NCBI GenBank assembly: GCA_964291315.2
Contig: OZ219752.1
Span: 288,001 to 352,000 of the forward strand
From: Candidatus Poribacteria bacterium
GTDB lineage: Bacteria > Poribacteria > WGA-4E > WGA-3G
DNA length: 64,000 nt
Direction: 5' to 3'
Part shown: positions 11,178-25,167 of the stretch, piece after piece
Numbering within the stretch: the stretch's first letter is position 1
Layout of the letters: each line of letters begins with the position of its first letter
Position numbers and translations under genes: made by a program
Notes under the pieces: generated by a model
What the model was told of the DNA's origin: nothing
What the model saw: only the letters and a program-made list of their open reading frames with translations
Databases searched by the model: none

Positions 11178-13586
11178 ATGCTTTATAAGGGGTTACAACT
11201 CGATCGCTTTCAAGAGTCCGCAATTTCTGCTATTAACCGAGATACTTCAGTGATTGTCACTGCTCCTACAGGTGCGGGCAAAACTGTCATCGCTGAGTAT
11301 GCCGTTGAAAAGTGCATCGAGGAGGACCACCGCGTTATCTACACGGCGCCAATCAAAGCGCTCAGTAATCAAAAATATCGGGATTTTTACGCTCAATATG
11401 GAGACAAAATCGGTATTGTTACCGGGGATGTAGTGCTAAATCCGTATGCCCAGGTGCTGTTGATGACCACCGAAGTTTTCCGGAATTCTATTTTTGATGA
11501 GATTGAACGCTTGCGGGATGTCTCTTACGTTGTCTTTGATGAAATCCACTATATTAATGATATTGCGCGCGGAACTGTCTGGGAAGAGAGTCTCATTTTT
11601 GCACCTCAACATATCAAATTTGTCTGTCTGAGTGCTACGATCCCGAACATCCGTTCTTTCACAAGATGGATGCAGAGCGTCCGGGATATAGACATCGAGA
11701 TAGTTGAAGAGTTAAACCGGCCTGTACCTTTAAAGCATCAGCTCTATTTTAAAGATTACGGTATCGGTAGTCTAAAGGATATACCACGTCTCCGGAATAT
11801 AGCCCGACGTAAGGTCCGGAAACGCAATGCTGATTCCGATGGTGAGAACCCCCCGTCTCTACCGCCTGACTTTATAGAGTCACGTCTTATTCCACATCTT
11901 CGCCGTGAAAGACACCTTCCGTGTCTCTATTTCTGTTTTAGTCGAAAGGGGTGCGAAGAAAACGCCAAAGCGCTCGTCCATGGATCGCAACTTCAGCTAC
12001 TTGAAAGAAGTCAACAGACCCAGATTTTAAACCGGTTTGACGAGCTTTGTGCCCAATTTGACATCGTAGAGGAAAAGAAAATTGCCCAATTTCGCAGATT
12101 GATCCGTTGTGGGATTGCCTATCATCATGCGGGGATGCTGCCCACACTCAAAGAGGTTGTAGAACGCTTGTTCACCTCTGGATTGATCCAACTCCTCTTT
12201 ACCACTGAAACTTTTGCTGTCGGTATTAATATGCCTGCCTGTTCTGTCGTCTTTGATAGTCTAAAAAAATATGATGGAATCGGATTTCGACCCCTCAAAG
12301 CACGGGAATATCACCAAATGTCCGGACGTGCCGGTAGACGCGGCATTGACCCTATCGGCTATGTCTATGCCCAGATTGTACCCGAATATGCTGATTCAGA
12401 AGAAATTCGAAGCGTTGTTGCTGATAAGATAGAGCCTATCGAAAGCCAATTTAATCTCTCCTATTCCAGTATTCTCAATCTTTATCAGAGATATGGAGAG
12501 GGGATTTACGATATCTATACGATGAGTCTGAGCAATCACCAAAACTACGTGCGTGTCGCAAAACTCAACAAAGAAATTGAGACCAAAACAGAGAAGCTCC
12601 AAGGGCTACCTGAGCCTGAGTGTATCCATGAGGGGATCAATGGAATCAAACAGATTGGGCAACATTATCGCCAAAATAGAGAGCGTGAAAAGGAACGTCA
12701 ACGTTTATACGCAGAGCGGGCGCAAATCAGATCCGAAATTCGAAAAAAGAGGCGGAAAAAAGCGCAAAATAAAAGATTAAAGGCAGTTCAACGAAAGATA
12801 AACCTGTTGCAGCGAAGAGCGGAGCCGAGCCTTTGTGATGCCTGTCAACACTTAAACACATGCACTACAAGATATAAAGCCATCCGGAAAGAGGAGGTGC
12901 GCCTCCAAAAACTCAAAGAGAGAACGACACGCATTGAAAACAACCCGATGGCGCAAATAATAGCTCGTCTCAGAGTACTTAAGGAATTAGGTTACATTGA
13001 AGCCGAAGCGCTGCTGCCGAGGGGCAGTACGGCTGCACACATTTCTGGATACGAGCTCGAATTAACCCAGCTCCTCCTTAACGGATTCTTTGAGAGACTG
13101 ACGGAAGATGAAATTAACTGCCTCATAGTCGCAATCGTCTCTGAACCGCGTAAAGATGGGTATTTTAAGCCCCTCAAGGATCCACACTTGTTGGAGGTCC
13201 TCTATGCCGTCAACTCCGAAATTTCGTTCATCCAATCTTTAGAGAATAAACACGGCGTGACAGAAATCACCCCTCTCTTGGAACTACGGTTTTGCACGGC
13301 GATGCTGGCCTGGAGCCGAGGGTGTCGCTTCGACATGCTTGAAAAGTATGCGCGCGTGGATGCTGGCGATTTTGTCCGAACCTTTCGGCTCGTCATCGAT
13401 CAACTCCGTCAAATGTGCCGTGCAATGAGTGGACACACCGCTCTAGTTGATAAGCTCAACCGATGTATTGAAAAAATCAATAGGGACGTTGTCGACGCGG
13501 AACGCCAATTACGGATTACACAAGAAAATCTTGATGAAGCAGACAGTAAGGCTGCTGAAGAGACGTTACGAAAAAAGGCATTGTAA
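11178..13586 (+). CDS. Ski2/HelY-like SF2 RNA helicase
   Basis: APTGAGKT, YTAPIKALSNQK, FDEIHY, LSATIPN, TETFAVGINMPA and QMSGRAGRRG; DSHCT-like C-terminus. Confidence 0.93.
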   Translation: MLYKGLQLDRFQESAISAINRDTSVIVTAPTGAGKTVIAEYAVEKCIEEDHRVIYTAPIKALSNQKYRDFYAQYGDKIGIVTGDVVLNPYAQVLLMTTEVFRNSIFDEIERLRDVSYVVFDEIHYINDIARGTVWEESLIFAPQHIKFVCLSATIPNIRSFTRWMQSVRDIDIEIVEELNRPVPLKHQLYFKDYGIGSLKDIPRLRNIARRKVRKRNADSDGENPPSLPPDFIESRLIPHLRRERHLPCLYFCFSRKGCEENAKALVHGSQLQLLERSQQTQILNRFDELCAQFDIVEEKKIAQFRRLIRCGIAYHHAGMLPTLKEVVERLFTSGLIQLLFTTETFAVGINMPACSVVFDSLKKYDGIGFRPLKAREYHQMSGRAGRRGIDPIGYVYAQIVPEYADSEEIRSVVADKIEPIESQFNLSYSSILNLYQRYGEGIYDIYTMSLSNHQNYVRVAKLNKEIETKTEKLQGLPEPECIHEGINGIKQIGQHYRQNREREKERQRLYAERAQIRSEIRKKRRKKAQNKRLKAVQRKINLLQRRAEPSLCDACQHLNTCTTRYKAIRKEEVRLQKLKERTTRIENNPMAQIIARLRVLKELGYIEAEALLPRGSTAAHISGYELELTQLLLNGFFERLTEDEINCLIVAIVSEPRKDGYFKPLKDPHLLEVLYAVNSEISFIQSLENKHGVTEITPLLELRFCTAMLAWSRGCRFDMLEKYARVDAGDFVRTFRLVIDQLRQMCRAMSGHTALVDKLNRCIEKINRDVVDAERQLRITQENLDEADSKAAEETLRKKAL

Positions 13587-13922
13587 TGAAAAACGAATTG
13601 TATTACAATAGAGCACTTGCACACGGTGCTGTTTTATGCTCAAAACCGCGTAAGTCCGAAACGATCGGATAGCCAAGCATATCCTTCGTTTGATTGAACG
13701 GGTGATTACAGTGAGCAGAGAGGCGATGTTGATTGTTAGTCAATTGCCGGCATTTAGTAAGAAGAGGCATCGTCGGGTTTCCAGCTCACAATCTACCAGC
13801 AGCTTGCAAGGTGTATAGAAAATGTTACACTTTCCGCGAAATTGTTTTTTTACAACAAAAAAAAAGAATGCGGATTAACCCGCTTATTCACTGTGTTTTC
13901 TGCCCATAACACCTCTACTCCT

Positions 13923-13944
13923 AATGTTACACCAGTGTAACATT
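13923..13944. promoter_or_regulatory. Perfect palindrome, candidate operator
   Basis: AATGTTACAC-CA-GTGTAACATT; a third identical half-site AATGTTACAC at 13821-13830. Confidence 0.55.
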
Positions 13945-14074
13945 TTTACACGGAGAATTCATTACGCCGGTCTAAGGATTTCTGCTAACATGTCACGTCA
14001 GCGATCGGATTTGCTTCTCGCCATAGGTTGACCTATAAAAGTATTACATATTATACATAAAACAGTGTTTTTCC

Positions 14075-14103
14075 TTGACAGAAACTATATTATCTCATAA
14101 ATT
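14075..14103 (+). promoter_or_regulatory. sigma70 promoter upstream of the paralog array
   Basis: TTGACA-N17-TAAATT, ~135 nt upstream of copy 1. Confidence 0.65.
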
Positions 14104-14237
14104 CTATTGTAGAGACACGCTGCGGTTTGCCTCGGTCTCCTGCTTCCGAGAGAACACGAAGAAGCGCACCGCTAGAGGCATTGTGAGTCTCACACATTAG
14201 CAATAAAGTCTAGTGGAGAAAAAAGGATAATAACATA

Positions 14238-14942
14238 GTGTTGAAGCAACTGTTATCAGACAAGCGTATTTTATGCGGTTTTATCTGTGTGTTGGTGCTG
14301 GTTGTTGGCGGCGTGGTATATGAGAGATCGGTGAAACAGCAAGCCCGCCGCGATATCCGACGCACTGAAAAGATCGTCAAAGAGAGGCAACGTCAGGAGA
14401 CCGGCTCTCAGCCCACAGAGAGTGGTCACTACCATTCGGATGGAACATATCACACAGGCTCACATGAAGCACCGGCCGGCACGACTGCCCCGTCAGAAGA
14501 GGGTAAGAAGAGCGGTATAGCTCCTGAGCGTGTGATATGGACAGGCAAGCCCCTGCGTGAGGTGTCCGCACCCGATCCGCTGAGTCCCGCGGAGCGCAAA
14601 GCACGCAATGCGAAGATCCAAGCACTCAATATACAGATACAGAAACTCAGAGGCGTAACAGAAGCAAAAACCGTCGAGTGTGATGAACGCATTAAGGCAT
14701 CTTCTAAAATCCTCAGGGAAAGGGAAGCAATCTCGGCAGAGCTGGACGCATTCCTCGTTGCAGAGGATCGCACTGCGGAAGAACAAGCACGCTTTGATGC
14801 ACTTTTAAAACAGTATTTAGAATTGCGCAACCTCTTTCATGAAAAGCACGCCATCGCTAAGCAAACGCTAGAAGAGAAGCGCACACTTCTTGAAAATCTC
14901 TATAGACTTGAAACGGATCGCGATGCGTTACGACGCCGATAA
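14238..14942 (+). CDS. Membrane-anchored His-motif coiled-coil protein, copy 1
   Basis: 234 aa; N-terminal TM, GHYHSDGTYHTGSH, Pro-rich linker, helical C-terminal half. Confidence 0.9.
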   Translation: MLKQLLSDKRILCGFICVLVLVVGGVVYERSVKQQARRDIRRTEKIVKERQRQETGSQPTESGHYHSDGTYHTGSHEAPAGTTAPSEEGKKSGIAPERVIWTGKPLREVSAPDPLSPAERKARNAKIQALNIQIQKLRGVTEAKTVECDERIKASSKILREREAISAELDAFLVAEDRTAEEQARFDALLKQYLELRNLFHEKHAIAKQTLEEKRTLLENLYRLETDRDALRRR

Positions 14943-14954
14943 GGAGGCATGTTG

Positions 14955-15002
14955 ATGAAGCACAGACGTATTGTAGTTGCAATAATATTAGGTTTGATGT
15001 AA
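14955..15002 (+). pseudogene. 15-codon stub MKHRRIVVAIILGLM* (vestigial signal-peptide start); also at 15760-15807, 16565-16612, 17368-17415 and 22859-22906
   Basis: GGAGG-N7-ATG begins 13 nt after the stop of the 234-aa gene, the same geometry as the start of the 1292-aa gene. Confidence 0.6.
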
Positions 15003-15042
15003 TGTAAAGTTTACGGACTTAACTGAAAAGGAGAAGGATGTA

Positions 15043-15747
15043 ATGTTGAAGCAACTTTTATCGGACAAGCGTATTTTAGGTGGGCTTATCTGTGTGTTGG
15101 TGTTGGTTGTTGCCGGCGTGGTATATGAGAGATCGGTGAAACGACAAGCCCGCCGGGATATACAGCGCCCTGAAAAGATCGTCAAAGAGAGGCAACCTCG
15201 GGAGACCGGCTCTCAGTCCGCAGAGAGTGGTCACTACCATTCGGATGGCACATATCACACAGGCTCACATGAAGCACCGGCCGACACGACTGCCCCGTCA
15301 GCAGAGGGTAAGAGGAGCCGTATAGCTCCGGGAGATGTGATATGGATGGGCAAGCCGCTGCGTGAAGTGTCAGCACCCGATCCGCTGAGTCCCGCAGAGC
15401 GCAACGCACGCAATGCGAAAATACAAACACTCAATACACAGATACAGAAACTCAAACGCATAACAGAAGCACAGACCAACGAGTGGTTGGAACACCTTAA
15501 AAAATATCCTAAAATCAGCCGAGAAAAAAGGGCAATCTTGGCTGAGAAGGATAAACTCCTCGCTGTAGAAGATTGGACTGCGGAAGAACGAGCCCGCTAT
15601 GACGCACTTTCAAAAAGGTTTGAAGAATTGAACGATCTAAGTGACAAAAGACGCGCTATCTCTGAGCAAATGCAGGAAGAGAACCTCCAGCTTCTTGAAA
15701 AGCGCGATGCCCTTGAAGCGGAACTGAGTGCCTTACGGCGCCGATAA
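15043..15747 (+). CDS. Membrane-anchored His-motif coiled-coil protein, copy 2
   Basis: 234-aa paralog with RBS (GGAG/AAGGA) upstream. Confidence 0.9.
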   Translation: MLKQLLSDKRILGGLICVLVLVVAGVVYERSVKRQARRDIQRPEKIVKERQPRETGSQSAESGHYHSDGTYHTGSHEAPADTTAPSAEGKRSRIAPGDVIWMGKPLREVSAPDPLSPAERNARNAKIQTLNTQIQKLKRITEAQTNEWLEHLKKYPKISREKRAILAEKDKLLAVEDWTAEERARYDALSKRFEELNDLSDKRRAISEQMQEENLQLLEKRDALEAELSALRRR

Positions 15748-15847
15748 GGAGGGATGTTGATGAAACACAGACGTATTGTAGTTGAAATAATATTAGGTTT
15801 GATGTAATGTAGCATTTACTAACTTAACTAAAAAGGAGAAGGATATA

Positions 15848-16552
15848 ATGTTAAAGCAATTGTTATCGGATAAGCGTATTTTATGCGGTTTTATCTGTGC
15901 TTTGGTGCTGGTTGTTACGTCGCTGGTGTATCAGGGATCTGTGAAACGGCAAGTCCACCGAGATATACAACGCACTGAAAAGATCGTCAAAGAGAGGCAA
16001 CGTCAGGAGACCGGCTCTCAGCCCACAGAGAATGGGCACTACCATTCGGATGGCACATATCACACAGGCTCACATGAAACACCGTCTGGCATGACTGCCC
16101 CGTCAAAAGAGGTTGAGAGGAGCGGTATAGCTCCTGAGAGTGTGATATGGACAGGCAAGCCGCTGCGTGAAGTGTCAGCACCCGATCCGCTGAGTCCTGC
16201 AGAGCGCAAGGCACGCAATGCGAAAATACAAGCACTCAATACTGAGATAAAGCAACTTGTGCGCGCAACGCGGGCACACATGCACAAGTATAATGAACAA
16301 GTTGACAAATATCCCAAAATCAGGCAAGAAATAAAGGCAATCTCGACAGAGTTGGACACTTTCCCCGCTGCAGAGGATCGCACTACGGAACAACAGACAC
16401 GCTATGACACCCTTTTAAAACGGTATTTAGAATTGGAGAACCTTGCTGACGAAGTTCTCACTATCGCAAATGAAATGCGGGAAGAGAGCCGCCAGCTTCT
16501 TGAAAATCTCGATCCACTTGAAACGGAGCTGAGTGCGTTACGGCGCCAATAA
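15848..16552 (+). CDS. Membrane-anchored His-motif coiled-coil protein, copy 3
   Basis: 234-aa paralog; identical to copy 6 after about residue 38. Confidence 0.9.
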   Translation: MLKQLLSDKRILCGFICALVLVVTSLVYQGSVKRQVHRDIQRTEKIVKERQRQETGSQPTENGHYHSDGTYHTGSHETPSGMTAPSKEVERSGIAPESVIWTGKPLREVSAPDPLSPAERKARNAKIQALNTEIKQLVRATRAHMHKYNEQVDKYPKIRQEIKAISTELDTFPAAEDRTTEQQTRYDTLLKRYLELENLADEVLTIANEMREESRQLLENLDPLETELSALRRQ

Positions 16553-16650
16553 GGAGGGATGTTGATGAAACACAGCCGTATTGTAGTTGAAATAATATTA
16601 GGTTTGATGTAGTCTATACTTCAGGAACTGAAAAGTAGGAGCATAACAAA

Positions 16651-17355
16651 GTGTTGAAGCGTCTATTATCAAACAAGCGGATTTTGGGTGTGGTTGTCTG
16701 TGCTTTAGTGCTGGTTGTTGCCGGCGTGGTATATGAGAGATCGGTGAAACAGCAAGCCCAACGCGATATCCGACGCACTGAAAAGATCGTCAAAGAGAGG
16801 CAACGTCAGGAGACCGGCTCTCAGTCCGCAGAGAGTGGTCACTACCATTCGGATGGCACATATCACACAGGCTCACATGAAGCACCGGCTGACACGACTG
16901 CCCCGTCAGAAGAGGTTGAGAAGAGCGGTATAGCTCCTGAGAGTGTGATATGGACGGGGAAGCCGTTGCGTGAGATTTCGGCACCCGATCCGCTGAGTCC
17001 CGCAGAGCGCAACGCACGCAATGCGAAAATACAAACACTCAATACACAGATACAGAAACTCAAACGCATAACAGAAGCACAGACCAACGAGTGGTTGGAA
17101 CACCTTAAAAAATATCCTAAAATCAGCCGAGAAAAAAAGGCAATCTCGGCAGAGCTGCGTGCACTCCGCGCTGCAGAGGATTGGACTGTGGAAGAACGAG
17201 CTCGCTATGATGCACTTTCAAAAAGGTTTGAAGAATTGGGCGATCTAATTGACAAAATTTTCTCCACCTCTGATCGGATGCAGGAAGAGAACCTCCAGCT
17301 TCTTGAAAAGCGCGATGCCCTTGAAGCGGAGCGCGATGCGCTGCGGCGCCGATAA
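16651..17355 (+). CDS. Membrane-anchored His-motif coiled-coil protein, copy 4
   Basis: 234-aa paralog; mosaic of blocks seen in copies 2, 5 and 7. Confidence 0.9.
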   Translation: MLKRLLSNKRILGVVVCALVLVVAGVVYERSVKQQAQRDIRRTEKIVKERQRQETGSQSAESGHYHSDGTYHTGSHEAPADTTAPSEEVEKSGIAPESVIWTGKPLREISAPDPLSPAERNARNAKIQTLNTQIQKLKRITEAQTNEWLEHLKKYPKISREKKAISAELRALRAAEDWTVEERARYDALSKRFEELGDLIDKIFSTSDRMQEENLQLLEKRDALEAERDALRRR

Positions 17356-17455
17356 GGCGGAATGTTGATGAAGCACAGACGTATTGTAGTTGAAATAATA
17401 TTAGGTTTGATGTAATGTAGAGTTTACGCACTTAACTAAAAAGGAGAAGGATATA

Positions 17456-18160
17456 ATGTTAAAGCAACTGTTATCAGACAAGCGTATTTTATGCGGTTTT
17501 ATCTGTGTGTTGGTGTTGGTTGTTGCCGGCGTGGTATATGAGAGATCGGTGAAACAGCAAGCCCAACGCGATATCCGACGCACTGAAAAGATCGTCAAAG
17601 AGAGGCAACATCGGGAGACTGGCTCTCAGTCCGCAGAGAATGGGCACTACCATTCGGATGGAACCTATCATACAGGATCACATGAAGCACCGGCAGACAC
17701 GACTGCGCCCTCAGGAGATGGTAAGAGGAGCAGTATAGCTCCTGAGCGTGTGATATGGACAGGGAAGCCGCTGCGTGAAGTGTCAGCACCCGATCCGCTG
17801 ACTCCCGCAGAGCGCAAAGCACGCAATGCGAAAATACAAGCACTCAATACACAGATACAGAAACTCAGACGCATAACACAAGCAAAAACCGTCGAGTGTG
17901 ATGAACGCATTAACGAAACTGATAAAACCCTCAGCGAAATCGATACAATCTCGGCAGAGCTGCGTGCACTCCACATTACAGAAGATTCGACTGCGGAAGA
18001 ACAAGCACGCCATGACGCACTTTTAAAACGGTATTTAGAACTGCACAACCTCGCCCGCGAAAGGAACGTCATCGCTAAGCAAACGCTAGAAGAGAAGCGC
18101 GCACTTCTTGAAAATCTCGATGCTCTTGAAGCGAAGCTTAGCGCTTTACGTGGTCGATAA
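17456..18160 (+). CDS. Membrane-anchored His-motif coiled-coil protein, copy 5
   Basis: 234-aa paralog directly upstream (12-nt gap) of the large Cys/His protein. Confidence 0.9.
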   Translation: MLKQLLSDKRILCGFICVLVLVVAGVVYERSVKQQAQRDIRRTEKIVKERQHRETGSQSAENGHYHSDGTYHTGSHEAPADTTAPSGDGKRSSIAPERVIWTGKPLREVSAPDPLTPAERKARNAKIQALNTQIQKLRRITQAKTVECDERINETDKTLSEIDTISAELRALHITEDSTAEEQARHDALLKRYLELHNLARERNVIAKQTLEEKRALLENLDALEAKLSALRGR

Positions 18161-18172
18161 GGAGGAATATCG

Positions 18173-21100
18173 ATGAACCGAAAATATACTGTAACCGTTT
18201 TTTTATGCGGTCTTTTTTGCCTCCACACAGTGGCGCTCGTGTTAGCTAACAATGAAGAGCGAACCCAATCGCAGAAAGATGCGGAAAGTAAATATGCCCA
18301 AGCACTTGATGGTTATCAAGACGCTCAAATTGCTAGGGGGAATGTTAAGATTGATGTTAGAGCTTTAGAAATAACTAGAGGATTGCTACAGAAGGAGATA
18401 AGTGATGAAAAGTTGGCAGCGTACGGTACGGTGCTCAACACGGCGGTGGCCTTGCTCACTGGGGCGTCTGCGGCGACCATAGCAACGAGAACGGCCGCAG
18501 CAATTGTCATTGGCAAGAGTGTTTCTGATATGGTCCGGACAATCCGTGACGCGCTGAAGGAGAATAAGAAAGCCACGCTTCATAAGTTGAAGCAAGGAAT
18601 GTATAACTTGGAGACAGAGCTAATAGAAAGGACGAAGGTGGTTCAAGATGAGGCAGCTGATGCTAACAGCGAGTTAGATGCTTGGAAAGCCGTAGAGCCC
18701 GGTGCGACGTATGACAAAAAGCCACTTGATGAACGGTATATTGATGTCGAAACAATGCATCCGGACTACACTCGGACGTTGCCGGATCCGCCGACGTATC
18801 GTTCCGACACGACGGAAACGATTGCGTGCCCTGCCTGTCGTGATCAGGTCAAGCCGCCATATTTGACAAAGATAGTGGTTTTATCCCCTGGTCTGATTAT
18901 GGGTATAGAGAAAACGGTCAAAAGGTATCGGGGTCATGAGGTCACGTGTGCAGAGACGCGTCACTCGACAGGCAAAGCGTGTGATGGTGAGTATTATAGT
19001 TGCTTGTCTCCGTATTCGAGTGCTTCCATAGTTTGCCCGAATGATGCGGATCACCGAGTTGTTGGCACGTGTGGTGAGCTCAAGGGCTCTAGGTTTAAGA
19101 AGCATGAGTATGCGAAGGGTTCGCCTGGGAATCATGGCAAGAAATTGAAGACTTGTGGTTCTATTGGTATGAGGTGGGAGCAATCCGATGGAACGGTCAC
19201 ACGGCAGGTATGTAAGATTAAGGTTTTTCCATGTGCGCCGGCGCATGGTCGGCATAATTGGGATCTGGTGTCTTTTAAGAAGCTATCACTGAATTTGGGT
19301 TCGGGCAGTAATTATATTTGTGCCAATTCCTCGTGTTCCATGAGCGGTAGCAGTTCATCGGGCGACGATGAAGACGACGAGGACGATACCGCTGACAATA
19401 CCCAGGGCGGTTCCGAATACGGTATGGGTATGGATGTGCGTTCGATAAACGGTAGCGGTTCGCCGAACGTCCCTCATCGAGAACAGGTTGCTCGAGCGTT
19501 AGCGTCTCGGGCGTGGAGAGCTTTACATTGGAACCACTCCGTCTCGCTAGGTATCTCTGCTGCACCGGAGCAGACTACCTCGCCGCTGAAGTTATCGTAT
19601 GAGCATCAGCGGGTGTGTTCAGAGGGGCATAAGTATTGGCTCTGTGATGCATCACAGAGGTTGGGGCATGCCCAATTGGTGTGTAGTCGTTCGGCGTGCG
19701 GGCAGGCGTTCACGCAGTGTTCTAACCACAGCTCAGCGTGTGTCGGGGGTTGGCATACCGGGGGTGCCGGTGATTTTTCCGAGACAGCAGATGCCTTGGC
19801 GGTGGTGTGTGGTAACCCGCACCGCAGGGATGGTGCGTGTGCATATGGGGGTCAGACCCCCTCGGTGAATGCTCATCGGACGACGTGTCTGGCAGGTCAT
19901 ACATATTGGTCGTGTAATGCGCAGGCGGTCCTAACGCATAGCAAACATACAGCCCGGCTTGTTACGTGTGGCAACTCGAACGCTGGGGAAGGAGCGTGTT
20001 CACAGGGGCGTCAAGCCGTCTCGTTGAATGCTCATCAGACGACGTGTCTGGCGGGTCATACATATTGGTCGTGTAATCCCGTGGCAAAACAGACGCATTC
20101 CTCTCACACCGCCTCATCCGGCGAAGGTACGGATGCTCCTAATACGGTTCCTGCTCGGGCTCCTGCACCTACTCCTGCGCGCCCTCCGACGGGAGATGGT
20201 GCGTGTGGCAACTCGAATGCTGGTGCGGGTGCGTGTTCTGTGGGAGGCAAGGCGCCGTCAGCGAATGCTCATCGGACGACGTGTCTGGCGGGTCATACGT
20301 ATTGGTCGTGTAATGCGCAGGCGGTTATAACGCATAGCCGACATACTGCGCCGCTTGTTGCGTGTGGCAACTCGAATGCTGGTGCGGGTGCGTGTTCACA
20401 GGGAGGCCGAGTCGTCTCGTTGAATGCTCATCAGGTTCGGTGTCTGGCGGGTCATACATATTGGTCGTGTAATCCCGTGGCAAAACAGACGCATTCCTCT
20501 CATACCGCCTCATCCGGCGAAAGTGCAAGTCTTTCTAAGATATCTTCTATGCTACTCCTGACGGGAGATGGTGCGTGTGGCAACTCGAATGCTGGGGATG
20601 GTGCGTGTTCTGCGGGAGGCAGGGCGCCGTCAGCGAATGCTCATCAGATTCGGTGTTTAGCAGGTCATACGTATTGGTCGTGTAATGCGCAGGCGGTTGT
20701 AATACATAGCCGACATACTGCGCCGCTTGTTGCGTGTGGCAACTCGAATGCTGGTGCGGGTGCGTGTTCTGCCGGAGGTCAAGCCGTCTCGTTGAATGCT
20801 CATCAGGCGCGATGTCTGGCGGGTCATACGTATTGGTCGTGTAATCCGTTAGCAAAACAGACGCATTCCTCTCATACCGCCTCATCCGGCGAAGGTACGG
20901 ATGCTCCTCATCTGGCTCCTGTGGCACCCGATCCTAAACCGTCTCGGGCGCCTGCACCTACTCCTGCGCGCCCTCCGACGGGAGATGTTGCGTGTGGCAA
21001 CTCGAATGCTGGTGCGGGAGCGTGTTCTGCGGGAGGCAGGGCGCCTTCAGCGAATGCTCATCAGGTTCGGTGTTTAGCGGGTCATACGTATTGGTCGTGT

Positions 21101-22051
21101 AATGCGCAGGCGGTTGTAAGGCATAGCCGACATACTGCGCCGCTTGTTGCGTGTGGCAACTCTAACGCTGGGGATGGTGCGTGTTCACAGGGAGGCCGAG
21201 CCGTCTCAGCCAATGCTCATCAGACGACTTGTTTAGCAGGTCATACATATTGGTCGTGTAATGCCCCATCGGTCCTAATGCATAGCAAACATACTGCCCC
21301 CGTGGTCTGTCCTGCGGATAGTTGGACGGATTGTGGTGGCACGGTATCACATGCGGCGACGTGTCCAGCGGGTCATTCGTATTACACGTGTAACTCATCG
21401 TCAGCGTCGACACATTCAGCACATACCGCTCCGCCGCCGCCACCCCCTCCGCCGGAGGATCCGGTTGTTTGTCCTGCGGATAGTTGGACGGATTGTGGTG
21501 GCACGGTATCGCATGCGGCGACGTGTCCAGCGGGTCATTCGTATTACACGTGTAACTCATCATCAGCGTCGACGCATTCAGCACATACCGCTCCGCCGCC
21601 GCCACCCCCTCCGCCGGAGGATCCGGTTGTTTGTCCTGCGGATAGTTGGACGGATTGTGGTGGCACGGTATCACATGCGGCGACTTGTGCGGCGGGTCAT
21701 TCGTATTATACGTGTAACTCATCGTCAGCGTCGACACATTCAGCACATACCGCTCCGCCGCCGCCACCCCCTCCGCCGGAGGATCCGGTTGTTTGTCCTG
21801 CGGATAGTTGGACGGATTGTGGTGGAAAGGTGTCACATGCGGCGACTTGTGAAGCTGGGCACGAGTATTATACATGTAACTCGTCAGCAGCTTCGGAACA
21901 TTCGGAACATACCGCTCCCGAACCGGCCTGCCCTGCAAGTAGTTGGACAGATTGTAGTGGGACCGGAACGGAGCATAAGGCGAAGTGTGGTAGAGGGCAT
22001 ACGTATTACACGTGCAATTCTTCGGCGCTTAAGAAACACTCCAAGCATTAG
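18173..22051 (+). CDS. Large secreted Cys/His-rich repeat protein (1292 aa) of unknown function
   Basis: RBS GGAGG; signal peptide (VLA|N); helical domain with a hydrophobic stretch; Cys/His-rich middle; acidic linker; 13 C4H4 modules. Confidence 0.9.
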   Translation: MNRKYTVTVFLCGLFCLHTVALVLANNEERTQSQKDAESKYAQALDGYQDAQIARGNVKIDVRALEITRGLLQKEISDEKLAAYGTVLNTAVALLTGASAATIATRTAAAIVIGKSVSDMVRTIRDALKENKKATLHKLKQGMYNLETELIERTKVVQDEAADANSELDAWKAVEPGATYDKKPLDERYIDVETMHPDYTRTLPDPPTYRSDTTETIACPACRDQVKPPYLTKIVVLSPGLIMGIEKTVKRYRGHEVTCAETRHSTGKACDGEYYSCLSPYSSASIVCPNDADHRVVGTCGELKGSRFKKHEYAKGSPGNHGKKLKTCGSIGMRWEQSDGTVTRQVCKIKVFPCAPAHGRHNWDLVSFKKLSLNLGSGSNYICANSSCSMSGSSSSGDDEDDEDDTADNTQGGSEYGMGMDVRSINGSGSPNVPHREQVARALASRAWRALHWNHSVSLGISAAPEQTTSPLKLSYEHQRVCSEGHKYWLCDASQRLGHAQLVCSRSACGQAFTQCSNHSSACVGGWHTGGAGDFSETADALAVVCGNPHRRDGACAYGGQTPSVNAHRTTCLAGHTYWSCNAQAVLTHSKHTARLVTCGNSNAGEGACSQGRQAVSLNAHQTTCLAGHTYWSCNPVAKQTHSSHTASSGEGTDAPNTVPARAPAPTPARPPTGDGACGNSNAGAGACSVGGKAPSANAHRTTCLAGHTYWSCNAQAVITHSRHTAPLVACGNSNAGAGACSQGGRVVSLNAHQVRCLAGHTYWSCNPVAKQTHSSHTASSGESASLSKISSMLLLTGDGACGNSNAGDGACSAGGRAPSANAHQIRCLAGHTYWSCNAQAVVIHSRHTAPLVACGNSNAGAGACSAGGQAVSLNAHQARCLAGHTYWSCNPLAKQTHSSHTASSGEGTDAPHLAPVAPDPKPSRAPAPTPARPPTGDVACGNSNAGAGACSAGGRAPSANAHQVRCLAGHTYWSCNAQAVVRHSRHTAPLVACGNSNAGDGACSQGGRAVSANAHQTTCLAGHTYWSCNAPSVLMHSKHTAPVVCPADSWTDCGGTVSHAATCPAGHSYYTCNSSSASTHSAHTAPPPPPPPPEDPVVCPADSWTDCGGTVSHAATCPAGHSYYTCNSSSASTHSAHTAPPPPPPPPEDPVVCPADSWTDCGGTVSHAATCAAGHSYYTCNSSSASTHSAHTAPPPPPPPPEDPVVCPADSWTDCGGKVSHAATCEAGHEYYTCNSSAASEHSEHTAPEPACPASSWTDCSGTGTEHKAKCGRGHTYYTCNSSALKKHSKH
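19808..21292 (+). repeat. Eight intragenic type-A modules C-x9-C-x11-H-x3-C-x3-H-x4-C-x7-H-x2-H, arranged as four pairs
   Basis: CLAGHTYWSCN occurs 8 times; Pro/Ala or Ser-rich linkers between pairs. Confidence 0.95.
21308..22048 (+). repeat. Five intragenic type-B modules (162-bp period, poly-Pro linkers)
   Basis: CPADSWTDC starts at 21308, 21470, 21632 and 21794, plus a divergent last copy; same H-x3-C-x3-H-x4-C-x7-H-x2-H core. Confidence 0.95.
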
Positions 22052-22064
22052 GCGATTTCTTTGA

Positions 22065-22098
22065 GAACAAAGCCTTGTTTTTCAGTAGGGCTTTGTTC
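22065..22098 (+). other. Stem-loop after the large gene (mRNA stabiliser or weak terminator)
   Basis: GAACAAAGCCTT...AGGGCTTTGTTC; no U-tract on the + strand. Confidence 0.5.
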
Positions 22099-22141
22099 AA
22101 AAGGAGGCAAAGCGAGTGCCTAATATTAAGGGGATGACGTA

Positions 22142-22846
22142 ATGTTGAGGCATCTATTATCAAACAAGCGGATTTTGGGTGTGGTTGTCTGTGCTTTAGT
22201 GCTGGTTGTTGCCGTCGTGGTGTATCAGGAAACGGTGAAACGGCAAGCTCACCGCGATATACAACGCACTGAAAAGATCGTCAAAGAGAGGCAACGTCAG
22301 GAGACCGGCTCTCAGCCCACAGAGAATGGGCACTACCATTCGGATGGCACATATCACACAGGCTCACATGAAACACCGTCTGGCATGACTGCCCCGTCAA
22401 AAGAGGTTGAGAGGAGCGGTATAGCTCCTGAGAGTGTGATATGGACAGGCAAGCCGCTGCGTGAAGTGTCAGCACCCGATCCGCTGAGTCCTGCAGAGCG
22501 CAAGGCACGCAATGCGAAAATACAAGCACTCAATACTGAGATAAAGCAACTTGTGCGCGCAACGCGGGCACACATGCACAAGTATAATGAACAAGTTGAC
22601 AAATATCCCAAAATCAGGCAAGAAATAAAGGCAATCTCGACAGAGTTGGACACTTTCCCCGCTGCAGAGGATCGCACTACGGAACAACAGACACGCTATG
22701 ACACCCTTTTAAAACGGTATTTAGAATTGGAGAACCTTGCTGACGAAGTTCTCACTATCGCAAATGAAATGCGGGAAGAGAGCCGCCAGCTTCTTGAAAA
22801 TCTCGATCCACTTGAAACGGAGCTGAGTGCGTTACGGCGCCAATAA
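22142..22846 (+). CDS. Membrane-anchored His-motif coiled-coil protein, copy 6
   Basis: 234-aa paralog. Confidence 0.9.
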   Translation: MLRHLLSNKRILGVVVCALVLVVAVVVYQETVKRQAHRDIQRTEKIVKERQRQETGSQPTENGHYHSDGTYHTGSHETPSGMTAPSKEVERSGIAPESVIWTGKPLREVSAPDPLSPAERKARNAKIQALNTEIKQLVRATRAHMHKYNEQVDKYPKIRQEIKAISTELDTFPAAEDRTTEQQTRYDTLLKRYLELENLADEVLTIANEMREESRQLLENLDPLETELSALRRQ

Positions 22847-23016
22847 GGAGGGATGTTGATGAAACACAGCCGTATTGTAGTTGAAATAATATTAGGTTTG
22901 ATGTAGTCTATACTTCAGGAACTGAAAAGTAGGAGCATAACAAAGTGTTGAAGCGTCTATTATCAAACAAGCGGATTTTGGGTGTGGTTGTCTGTGCTTT
23001 AGTGCTGGTTGTTGCC
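22256..23016 (+). repeat. 761-bp direct repeat identical to 15962-16722
   Basis: Offset 6294 bp; no mismatch found by eye. Confidence 0.9.
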
Positions 23017-23649
23017 TTCGTGGTGTATCAGGGATCAATGAAACAGCAAGCTCACCGCGATATCCGACGGACTGAAAAGAGCATCAAAGAGAGGCAACCT
23101 CGGGAGACTGGCTCTCGGTCTGCAGAGAGTGGGCACTACCATTCGGATGGGACATATCACACAGGCTCACATGAAACAACGTCTGGCACGACTGCTCCGT
23201 CAGCAGAGGGTAAGAGGAGCGGTATAGATCCTGAGCGTGTGATATGGACGGGCAAGCCGCTGCGTGAGGTGTCCGCACCCGATCCGCTGAGTCCAGCAGA
23301 GCGCAAGGCACGCAATGCGAAGATCCAAGCACTCAATACAGAGATCGAGCAACTCTGGCGCGTAATAGAGGCACAAACCGTCGAGTGGAATGAACACGTT
23401 GATAAATATCCTAAAATCAGCCGAGAAAGAAGAGCAATCTTAGCAGAGATGAACGCCCTCCCTACTGCACAGGATTGGACTGCGGAAGAACGAGCTCGCT
23501 ACAACGCACTTTCAAAAAGGTTTGAAGAATTGGACGATCTAAGTGACAAAATTTTCTCTACCTCTGATCGGATGCAGGAAGAGAATCGCCTGCTTCTTGA
23601 AAAGCGCGATGCCCTTGAAGCGGAGCTGAGTGCGTTACGGCGCCAATAA
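22945..23649 (+). CDS. Membrane-anchored His-motif coiled-coil protein, copy 7
   Basis: 234-aa paralog; the conserved spacer is absent after it. Confidence 0.9.
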   Translation: MLKRLLSNKRILGVVVCALVLVVAFVVYQGSMKQQAHRDIRRTEKSIKERQPRETGSRSAESGHYHSDGTYHTGSHETTSGTTAPSAEGKRSGIDPERVIWTGKPLREVSAPDPLSPAERKARNAKIQALNTEIEQLWRVIEAQTVEWNEHVDKYPKISRERRAILAEMNALPTAQDWTAEERARYNALSKRFEELDDLSDKIFSTSDRMQEENRLLLEKRDALEAELSALRRQ

Positions 23650-23706
23650 TAGTTGCGAACTACATCCTGATAACAACTATCTAATAACAAATTAAGGAGA
23701 ATATCC

Positions 23707-24267
23707 ATGGCTAATCAAGACTTCAATCTCACTGGTGCTATTAAAGTACGACCGGCTGAAGAAACCGATGCAGCTAATTTGCACATGTACTGCTTTCCTG
23801 AAAAAACCAAAAAGCAGGTCACTGAAGAGCTGAAAAACGATCTGAAAGCTGAAAATCAGACACACCGACTTGTTGCTGAATCGAGTGGATACCCTATTGG
23901 GCAGGTCACTGTCAAGCAAAACGTTGGTAACCCCGAGATCGCACAGGTTGGGAATCTTGCTGTTGCAGGGCCTTTTCGGCACTTCGGGGTCGCTAATTAC
24001 CTGATAGAGGCGGCTCAGGATGCTGCTGCAGCGAACGGTGTAAAATCGCTTCAAATAGAGTTATCCCCCTCCGATACGAGCGTTATTCAGCGGTATAAGG
24101 ACTGGGGGTTCTCCGAAAAACCGGTCGTTGTTCTCGAAAAGATACTCGGTGAATCAGAACCGGAGGCAGAGGAAGGAATACAGGTAGAGGCAGACGACAC
24201 CGACGAAGATGCCGAAGATGGAGCCTCAGCAGACGACGATGAACAACCCAGCCTGCTTGACTCCTAA
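23707..24267 (+). CDS. GNAT family acetyltransferase with acidic tail
   Basis: LAVAGPFRHFGVANYLI (acetyl-CoA loop) and YKDWGF. Confidence 0.85.
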   Translation: MANQDFNLTGAIKVRPAEETDAANLHMYCFPEKTKKQVTEELKNDLKAENQTHRLVAESSGYPIGQVTVKQNVGNPEIAQVGNLAVAGPFRHFGVANYLIEAAQDAAAANGVKSLQIELSPSDTSVIQRYKDWGFSEKPVVVLEKILGESEPEAEEGIQVEADDTDEDAEDGASADDDEQPSLLDS

Positions 24268-24282
24268 AAGGAGAATAGATTT

Positions 24283-25167
24283 ATGAACAGAATCTGGCTC
24301 CCGCTCCTCCTGGTCCTTTTTGTTGTCGGGTGCGGCACCCAAAACGAAAATCTTGCCAAGGGGAAGGAGTTGATTAAATCCGATAAACGCCGGAAAGAAG
24401 AACGGGCTGTTCGAGAATTTAAACTTGCACTCCAACAACCGATCGATAAGGCAGAATCACACTACCTGCTCGGACTTTACAATTCCCAGGAGTTTTACGA
24501 ACCGAATACCGCCGACCGGGAAGCGGCCTCAATCGCTGCGCGCGGGGGACACATGTTCCTTGCATATAAGGAAGAACCGCGTAAGTATCTTGAGATACTC
24601 ATTTTTGAGACGCTTCGCGATGACGATCTAGATATTCAAAACGTCGCGCTCGATGCTTTAACGCGCATATATAAAGAGGGCGATCGGAAACGACTGATCA
24701 GTCAACTTCAGAAGGCTATCAAATCCGGGGATAATCGCGATAGACACAGCGCACATTGGGTATTTGGACACCTCGGTAAGGAAGACCCCGGGGTGCTTGT
24801 CCCCATTTTGTTAGAACTGCTTGATCACGGCCGCGAAGAAACCCGCTTGAATGCCGTTAAGGCCCTTGGCGACATCGGGAGCGAAGAAGCAATTCCTGCC
24901 CTCGCTGCCCTGATTGACTCCGGCGCTGCTAGATGGAAACGCGACCGGGAGAAACCTGAAGTTCGTCAACTCGCTGTAGAAGCCCTCGGCAAAATCGGTG
25001 GTGCTGCTGTCCCAGAACTCATCAAAATTGTAGAGAATAAGGGGTCTTCGCTACGTGTCGACGCTATTCGCGCCTTAGCAACCCTCGGAGATGAAAAAGT
25101 CGTTGTGCCGCTCTTAGATGTTTTGAAAGAGCAGAGCAGCCGGGATGTGAGTATCCCCCTTAATTGA
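24283..25167 (+). CDS. HEAT-repeat lipoprotein
   Basis: Lipobox VVGC; repeats TRLNAVKALGDIG, VRQLAVEALGKIG and LRVDAIRALATLG. Confidence 0.85.
   Translation: MNRIWLPLLLVLFVVGCGTQNENLAKGKELIKSDKRRKEERAVREFKLALQQPIDKAESHYLLGLYNSQEFYEPNTADREAASIAARGGHMFLAYKEEPRKYLEILIFETLRDDDLDIQNVALDALTRIYKEGDRKRLISQLQKAIKSGDNRDRHSAHWVFGHLGKEDPGVLVPILLELLDHGREETRLNAVKALGDIGSEEAIPALAALIDSGAARWKRDREKPEVRQLAVEALGKIGGAAVPELIKIVENKGSSLRVDAIRALATLGDEKVVVPLLDVLKEQSSRDVSIPLN

Follow-up and report, generated by a model that had tools for sequence, protein, structure and literature searches.

Why should the same 15-codon reading frame recur in the spacers of a tandem gene array, at the very place where another spacer opens into a gene for 1292 amino acids (aa)? 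The question arises in a 64,000-nucleotide (nt) stretch of the genome of a Candidatus Poribacteria bacterium (GenBank assembly GCA_964291315.2, contig OZ219752.1, positions 288,001 to 352,000 of the forward strand), here called the window. A 234-codon open reading frame (ORF), gene A, is present in it as seven tandem copies (14238-23649), with a unit spacing of 803-805 nt from start to start; the giant gene B follows copy 5, and a short ORF, the stub, follows copies 1, 2, 3, 4, and 6. We consider it slightly better than an even bet (probability about 0.55) that the stubs are the 5' relic of a B-type partner gene, of single origin, amplified together with A, probably still translated, and unexpectedly conserved.

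Build of the stubs and their likeness to the giant's start

Direct reading of the window bears out the five stubs described in an initial annotation of this DNA, with their geometry and coordinates (Table 1). Each is made up of TAA, GG(A/C)GG, 7 nt, ATG, 14 codons, and TAA or TAG, and behind copy 5 the order TAA-GGAGG-N7-ATG opens the giant. The n-region of the stubs is positively charged right behind the Met (K2, H3, R4, which is S in two copies, and R5), and the copy-1 stub has a hydrophobic run of 10 residues (IVVAIILGLM), which Glu9 breaks in the other four. Base composition alone does not account for this signal-like build: when the stub body was shuffled 200,000 times with its base composition kept, a fraction of 2e-5 gave an open frame with two or more K/R among residues 2-5 and 10 or more hydrophobic residues in a row, and a fraction of 0.0014 did so with a 6-residue run instead. 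A c-region, a cleavage site, and a mature protein are absent, as all five ORFs end after codon 15; by its residues a stub would be at most a truncated signal-peptide start, not a signal peptide.

All stub-bearing spacers have one stub length and one junction. A tract of ~700 nt, from about nt 100 of copy 3 through its spacer to the start of copy 4, is 100% identical to the tract from copy 6 through its spacer to the start of copy 7, and the synonymous divergence (dS) between copies 3 and 6 is 0 from codon 61 on; between A copies it is about 0.1-0.6. Since the third and the fifth stub share this tract, there are four independent stubs and not five. The single length, the single junction, and the recent-copy nature of the fifth stub argue for one event that spread with the repeat rather than for five losses, and the five empty slots that the initial annotation saw in these spacers are therefore not supported.

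The likeness to the giant is uneven. From the stop to ATGAA, 17/20 bases are the same in the stub junctions and in the giant's junction, and homology between the two is clear only over this segment. The gap-free alignment of stub and giant proposed earlier holds for its shared residues (V7, G13, and L14, plus M1), but the similarity itself is ordinary, the giant ranking 52/2662 among the ORF starts of the genome that are preceded by a Shine-Dalgarno (SD) sequence and 39/182 among signal-like starts. In DNA, 24/45 positions of stub and giant are identical (rank 5/182 signal-like starts). The top amino-acid look-alikes of the stub are at least 12 secreted paralogues in the same genome with the N-terminus MLWNK(I/M)R(I/V)(F/L)VVLG(L/I)..., yet their DNA identity to it is at chance level. 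A derivation of the stub, in degenerate form, from the 5' end of A itself was also considered, but the score did not rise above 622 transmembrane- or signal-like controls.

With a profile built from five B-type N-termini, the stub comes out at rank 12/2662 overall and 6/182 among signal-like starts. The first 260 residues of the giant, used in an exhaustive HMMER search, retrieved six other B-type representatives only. The B homologue P0009 starts with MKHRNLWLTIFLL, an MKHR start; it could not be placed in a genome, and its best match in the genus, in G022, has 50% identity. The profile rank and the MKHR start lend weak support to the earlier proposal that the stub is the start of a different large-gene allele, but the parent gene was not found. 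Together they point weakly to a B-type gene, not the present giant, as the source of the stub; we infer both this origin and the order of events set out below.

The A-B pair and its truncated forms in related species

The A family was detected in 23/36 sampled genomes of the genus and in 0/24 genomes of other genera of the same order, and at E<=1e-6 in 25/64 genus genomes; as far as these samples reach, it is restricted to one genus. Among 5.8 billion proteins, the close A relatives were the window's own six proteins only, and no further copy of A or of the giant was found elsewhere in the window's own genome.

The neighbours of A were surveyed for all 55 non-self matches at E<=1e-6 in the 64 genus genomes, one of which runs off its contig, leaving 54 assessable. 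A signal- or anchor-like ORF lies within -14 to +57 nt of the A stop in 43/54; 35 of these downstream ORFs are at least 90 aa long or run off the contig end, and 8 are short (17-67 aa). The signal/anchor filter is crude: of the 11 homologues that failed it, at least 3 are in fact followed by such a gene or stub. The stubs behind copies 1-4 and 6 occupy the exact position of the partner ORF in relatives, and the ancestral two-gene pair postulated in the initial annotation is upheld by this survey. The C-terminal Cys/His motif of the giant also ends many B genes, and in several loci a gene for an extracytoplasmic function (ECF) sigma factor lies upstream.

The gene preceding A is also recurrent. 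In relatives, 9/9 A1-type genes examined have an upstream gene ending in ...(K/Q/N/V)RR and a stop, with AGGAGATAA; since the end of the upstream gene carries AGGAGATAA, the SD sequence for A lies inside its last codons, 3-4 nt before A's ATG. L035, one of the nine, has a 228-nt insert between the upstream gene and A, and there the motif recurs immediately ahead of A. The best A homologue in G066 has the same (K/Q/N/V)RR-type end before its own downstream gene.

Truncation just inside B is found in other species as well. In G008, a duplicate of the A-B region with 98% identity breaks off 36 nt into B; in G034, homology (74%) to the intact G028 pair stops 26 nt into B; and in G028 one A copy retains just 10 nt of B (79%). 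Independent B-start stubs are shown, by these alignment ends, in three other species. As in the window, an A homologue is followed by the first codons of a B gene, here 4-12 of them; the differences are that the parent B gene is identifiable in the sister species and not in the window, and that the window stub, unlike theirs, has been amplified five-fold and conserved.

G022 carries in-frame chimeric ORFs of 183-211 aa between A copies, at two loci (G022:C17 and G022:C70). Residues 4-165 of the 211-aa ORF match residues 14-180 of the giant, its N-terminal domain (E 6e-29), and its residues 154-211 correspond to the C-terminal end of the gene usually found in front of A (67% identity, E 2e-21). 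The other ORF, of 183 aa, has the same kind of end. The chimeras thus consist of a B-type N-terminal domain and the last 34-58 residues of the pre-A gene family (...TDIFLNAKRR). Judged from these matches, the architecture is what one would expect from a tandem duplication of upstream gene end, A, and B start, and the window spacer looks like an extreme, 15-codon version of it. G022:C70 also holds a B gene in two pieces, of 119 aa and 197 aa.

A 17-codon "stub" in G064 was considered as a parallel case and set aside, being a B gene broken by an insertion of ~110 nt. The insertion lies in the signal-peptide region of B (G064:C349, about 1550-1660 of the locus), is flanked by an 8-bp inverted pair (GGCTCATG / CATGAGCC), and may be a miniature mobile element.

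The mechanism that we propose starts from a genus-specific module, in which a gene for a membrane-anchored A would be followed by a tightly adjoining gene for a secreted, Cys/His-rich B, probably translationally coupled to it. In a single rearrangement, a deletion or the join of a tandem duplication, A would have been left with only the SD sequence, start codon, and initial 15 codons of a B-type signal peptide behind it, that is, the n-region KHRR and part of the hydrophobic core. The resulting unit of 803-805 nt (A, the stub, and about 40 nt with the ribosome site of the next A) would then have been amplified by unequal recombination, with a last and very recent step yielding copies 6-7. Ribosomes leaving A are predicted to translate the stub into a 15-residue peptide and to stop about 40 nt before the next A.

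Constancy of the stubs and competing explanations

Conservation was counted over the four independent units. Variable sites number 3/45 in the stub and 6/63 from the stop codon of A through that of the stub, where the spacer is most conserved; the final 87 nt of A have 34/87 (Fisher p=6e-5). Fourfold-degenerate sites of A are variable at 18/58 (p=0.003 against the stub), and those of its best-conserved third at 8/29 (p=0.02); of the 45-nt windows inside A, 4.6% are as constant as the stub. The constant block terminates at the stub's stop codon, beyond which the spacers split into two unlike types; in spacer 3, the block is followed by the second of these types and then by a GTG-started A copy. 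Among type-1 spacers alone the contrast is weaker (2/45 versus 7/40, p=0.077). The decay that the initial annotation had seen in the Glu residues is contradicted by the excess of variable fourfold sites in A. Glu9 is a single GCA/GAA difference common to related units, so its presence in four of five stubs does not stand for four events. The stub is either under selection now, as a translated short ORF or as a DNA or RNA signal, or locally homogenised. As a strong SD sequence, an ATG, and an open frame are kept in each stub, translation by ribosomes coming off A is probable.

Several results weigh against the stubs being the amplified relic of a B-type gene. No full-length gene with the stub N-terminus, the gene that the slots of the initial annotation would call for, was found: MKHRRIVV, with up to 1 mismatch, occurs in 0/64 other genomes of the genus, and the 2 + 2 matches to a looser pattern in the genome_contigs and metagenome_contigs collections are chance ones, lying in unrelated low-GC DNA with no A nearby. 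The amino-acid similarity of stub and giant is at background (39/182), and beyond ATGAA their DNA matches at 18-19/40, the level of generic signal-peptide starts. The profile rank of 6/182 is borderline, and the test was chosen after the sequences had been seen. The array ends without a B gene: copy 7 has no stub behind it, homology with the other units stops at its stop codon, and unrelated DNA follows. Strong conservation, finally, is not expected of a neutral relic. The 3' part of the spacers, which after a simple join of the present flanks would be like the DNA upstream of copy 1, has no similarity above shuffles to it (40-nt pieces, low power), and the same holds for the DNA upstream of copy 6 against the spacers, a comparison of low power with 40-nt pieces at dS 0.1-0.6. 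By eye, the 36-40 nt behind the stub make a convincing remnant of the pre-A gene's 3' end (...FLNAKRR and a stop), but they do not rise above controls: they score 2-6, where 4010 SD-bearing control upstream regions average 3.0 with a 90th percentile of 6, a test of low power on 40 nt.

The constancy could also mean that the SD sequence and the 15-codon ORF are a working element today, kept by selection whatever their origin. We hold this for a real but clearly lesser possibility, and it does not exclude an origin as a relic. The element might be a re-initiation relay by which ribosomes stay on a polycistronic RNA from one A copy to the next, a small hydrophobic peptide, or a DNA or RNA signal for the next A, such as an internal promoter or a processing site. 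It would account for the sharp island between the variable end of A and the two-type post-stub segment, for a stub more constant than fourfold sites, and for the SD sequence, ATG, and open frame being intact in all five stubs. By eye, and with no tool, a weak promoter candidate (TTGAAA-N17-TAATGT/TAGTCT) can be placed across the 3' half of the stub, and the Ala-to-Glu change (GCA to GAA) betters its first hexamer; the sigma-70 and terminator scan, however, lists no site in the stubs. Nor do the RNA tests favour an element: single-sequence folds are unremarkable (z -0.1 to -1.8), a consensus fold of the stub 3' half with the start of the next A has 0/32 compensatory pairs, and Rfam 15 gave 0 matches at E<=1 in window positions 13400-24400. 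Pairing between the stub and the next start was equalled by 34, 263, 837, 340, and 825 of 1000 shuffles, and its duplex energies by 803/1500 other initiation regions, so a translational coupling through occlusion of the ribosome-binding site is not supported. Moreover, the tandem A copies of G028 have no such ORF in their spacers, and the contrast in constancy comes from four independent copies only and is weak among type-1 spacers alone. The opposite view, that the ORF is accidental, would derive only stop, SD sequence, and ATGAA from a B start and take the remaining 13 codons for spacer DNA read to the first stop. The clear homology to the giant does end with ATGAA, and sample contigs described below break off alignment right behind it; but the rarity of the n-region and hydrophobic run among shuffles, the rank of the stub against B-type N-termini, and a stub that is conserved and not drifting make this the least credible of the explanations considered here.

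Strain variation bears on a further alternative. Contigs from four DNA runs of one study (X1-X4) were compared with the window at a likeness of at least 90 in 100. A 635-nt contig of X2 aligns with the giant at 18560-18785 and 18251-18331 and ends in 39 letters that align with 14921-14959, a copy-1-type A end with SD sequence and ATGAA. In X4, a contig of 1883 nt has 52 letters on 16518-16569 (a copy-3/6-type end with SD sequence and ATGAA) and then continues on the giant from 18602 onward. In both, the letters between the A end and the giant match neither stub nor giant at 90% likeness. X4 has a joint from 16980 to 15373, a step of two units backwards, and both X2 and X4 contain mosaic A copies (22576 to 17930 and 18052 to 17278). 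These joints and A ends indicate that the array is rearranged among strains and that the A variant before the large gene differs from the copy-5 type. Two observations stand apart: contigs of X1 have a joint that skips from 18951 to 21732 in the giant, which suggests repeat-number variation or an assembly collapse, and X3 has no cover over the giant at 18193-21080 and no contig joining across, from which nothing is concluded.

That each spacer once held, or elsewhere holds, a different large-gene allele, exchanged as a cassette in the manner of orphan cassettes, seems to us quite improbable, if marginally less so than an accidental ORF. In its favour, X2 and X4 contigs join copy-1- or copy-3/6-type A ends to giant-like sequence, the array is rearranged with mosaic A copies among samples, and breakpoints just inside B recur in four species. 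The X2 and X4 contigs, short and from one study, are the sole evidence that leans toward slots; strains do differ in the A variant before the large gene, but the letters behind ATGAA match neither stub nor giant. Five separate losses, one of them at what is a recent copy, would not have yielded the same length and junction, a full-length gene with the stub start is absent from the 64 genus genomes and both contig collections, and the defining features of orphan cassettes are lacking, as discussed below. A related idea, unlikely in our judgement though less so than the slots, is that A stop, SD sequence, ATG, and first signal codons form a maintained docking point at which genes for large secreted proteins are exchanged, lost, and regained. 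The stubs would then be constant as a recombination anchor and a translated placeholder, while the array would vary the C-terminal halves of A and the B partner between strains. The breakpoints 10-48 nt into B in four species, the X2 and X4 alignments that break right behind ATGAA, and the position of the conserved island between mosaic, fast-changing A ends (C-terminal ratio of nonsynonymous to synonymous divergence, dN/dS, of 0.5-0.9) would all fit. We retain the single-origin relic of a B-type gene as the preferred explanation of the stubs.

The module and known systems compared

Protein A has an N-terminal membrane anchor, a His-rich GHYHxDGTYHxGxHE motif, and a variable, coiled-coil-like C-terminal half; the hallmark of its family is this anchor with, behind it, an invariant G-H-x-H-x-D ... 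H ... H motif. The C-terminal half (codons 126-234) is a mosaic among the copies, 1 resembling 5, 2 resembling 4 and 7, and 3 being the same as 6, and its dN/dS of 0.5-0.9 compares with 0.2-0.5 in the N-terminal part; it has the look of a coiled-coil region that diversifies and recombines between conserved blocks. The giant consists of a signal peptide, a helical N-terminal domain common to B homologues, and Cys/His-rich repeats. Its internal repeats (4 of ~396 nt and 4 of 162 nt) code for Cys/His-rich units (C...C...H...C.AGH.Y(W/Y)(S/T)CN...H..H) with proline runs between them. Pfam gave 0 families for A, for the giant (whole and in parts), for the upstream gene family, and for the A2-type neighbours, the single match in the module neighbourhood being the ECF sigma factor adjoining the G028 array. 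A PDB sequence search with the module proteins gave no meaningful match, and none for the giant. The same genome contains a second tandem set of small membrane-anchored proteins (G000:C4:3188318-3193605), in which a 239-aa gene is duplicated and an 87-aa copy is paired with a 180-aa copy of another gene, and which also holds an A-like protein starting with MKHLRTPYRLFIGAL.

Table 1. Gene copies, stub-bearing spacers, and candidate signals of the array (window positions)
Feature	Position	Strand	Remarks
Promoter candidate, sigma-70-like	14075..14103	+	TTGACA-17-TAAATT; 10/12 consensus matches; ~135 nt upstream of copy 1
A copy 1	14238-14942	+	234 aa
Spacer 1 island	14943..15002	+	GGAGG, 7 nt, stub 14955-15002 = MKHRRIVVAIILGLM
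A copy 2	15043-15747	+	234 codons
Spacer 2 island	15748..15807	+	SD sequence and stub 15760-15807 = MKHRRIVVEIILGLM
A copy 3	15848-16552	+	234 codons
Spacer 3 island	16553..16612	+	SD sequence and stub 16565-16612 = MKHSRIVVEIILGLM; TAG stop
A copy 4	16651-17355	+	234 codons; GTG start
Spacer 4 island	17356..17415	+	GGCGG SD variant and stub 17368-17415 = MKHRRIVVEIILGLM
A copy 5	17456-18160	+	Sole copy with a full-length partner gene behind it
Giant gene B	18173-22051	+	1292 aa; between A copies 5 and 6
10-bp inverted repeat	22065..22098	+	Just 3' of the giant's stop; without T-run; read directly from the sequence
A copy 6	22142-22846	+	Same as copy 3 from about nt 100 onward
Spacer 6 island	22847..22906	+	SD sequence and stub 22859-22906 = MKHSRIVVEIILGLM; exact copy of spacer 3
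A copy 7	22945-23649	+	GTG start; array terminates at its stop codon

The inverted repeat behind the giant may form a hairpin; it is not among the results of the terminator scan. The promoter candidate upstream of copy 1 could possibly serve the array; the sigma-70 scan as a whole is not enriched over shuffles (14 sites found versus 10.8 expected). Further upstream, the segment 13805-13948 is polymorphic in runs X1 and X3, with loose ends at 13805 and 13948 and a joint from 13851 to 13926; a near-palindrome (ATGTTACAC..GTGTAACAT) lies at about 13924-13945, with a related copy at about 13822.

The relic of a neighbour gene's start inside an amplified unit is in itself ordinary, and annotators are cautioned that the stub ORFs should be called neither genes nor five separate pseudogenes. 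Less ordinary are a relic more constant than silent sites over a dS of 0.1-0.6 and a truncation just inside the partner gene that recurs in several species. Less ordinary, too, is the uncharacterised, genus-restricted module that the relic marks; where this module is present, its order is ECF sigma factor, membrane anchor with a His motif, and hypervariable, Cys/His-rich secreted giant, and the array differs between samples. If the constancy of the stubs reflects function, they would be a compact natural case of short ORFs or junctions organising expression or recombination in arrays of paralogues.

The initial annotation had likened the spacers to orphan cassettes. Orphan cdiA-CT/cdiI and Rhs-CT cassettes lie downstream of polymorphic toxin genes, in tandem arrays where fragments of a large secreted-protein gene sit next to small partner genes, homology to the full-length gene breaks off at a fixed position, and strains differ by rearrangement, all of which resembles the window. 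Orphan cassettes keep the 3', toxin-encoding part with its VENN motif and generally lack initiation signals (PMC3150448); the window stubs are the opposite, a 5' part with only the initiation signals (SD sequence and ATG) and 15 codons, and the analogy is not borne out. Nor was a recognisable toxin, delivery, Rhs, or contact-dependent inhibition (CDI) domain found in the giant (0 Pfam families, no PDB match).

Short ORFs in operons can serve termination-reinitiation or translational coupling. The window stubs are similar to such ORFs in their strong SD sequence, in an ATG placed 12 nt behind the upstream stop, and in an end about 40 nt before the next SD-bearing start. They differ in that no occluding structure or complementarity was detected in the window spacers, and coupling alone would not need the inner codons to be constant.

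Tandem duplication and amplification in bacteria leave join-point (novel-junction) fragments, and this appears to be the closest general kind for the window stubs. Laboratory amplifications are young and unstable, whereas the copies in the window have diverged (dS about 0.1-0.6) around a near-constant junction piece, and the present flanks of the array no longer appear to match the junction. In both, however, the repeat unit is a complete gene plus a piece of its neighbour, the junction is identical in every repeat, and copy number shifts by unequal recombination, rearranged forms being seen among the samples compared with the window.

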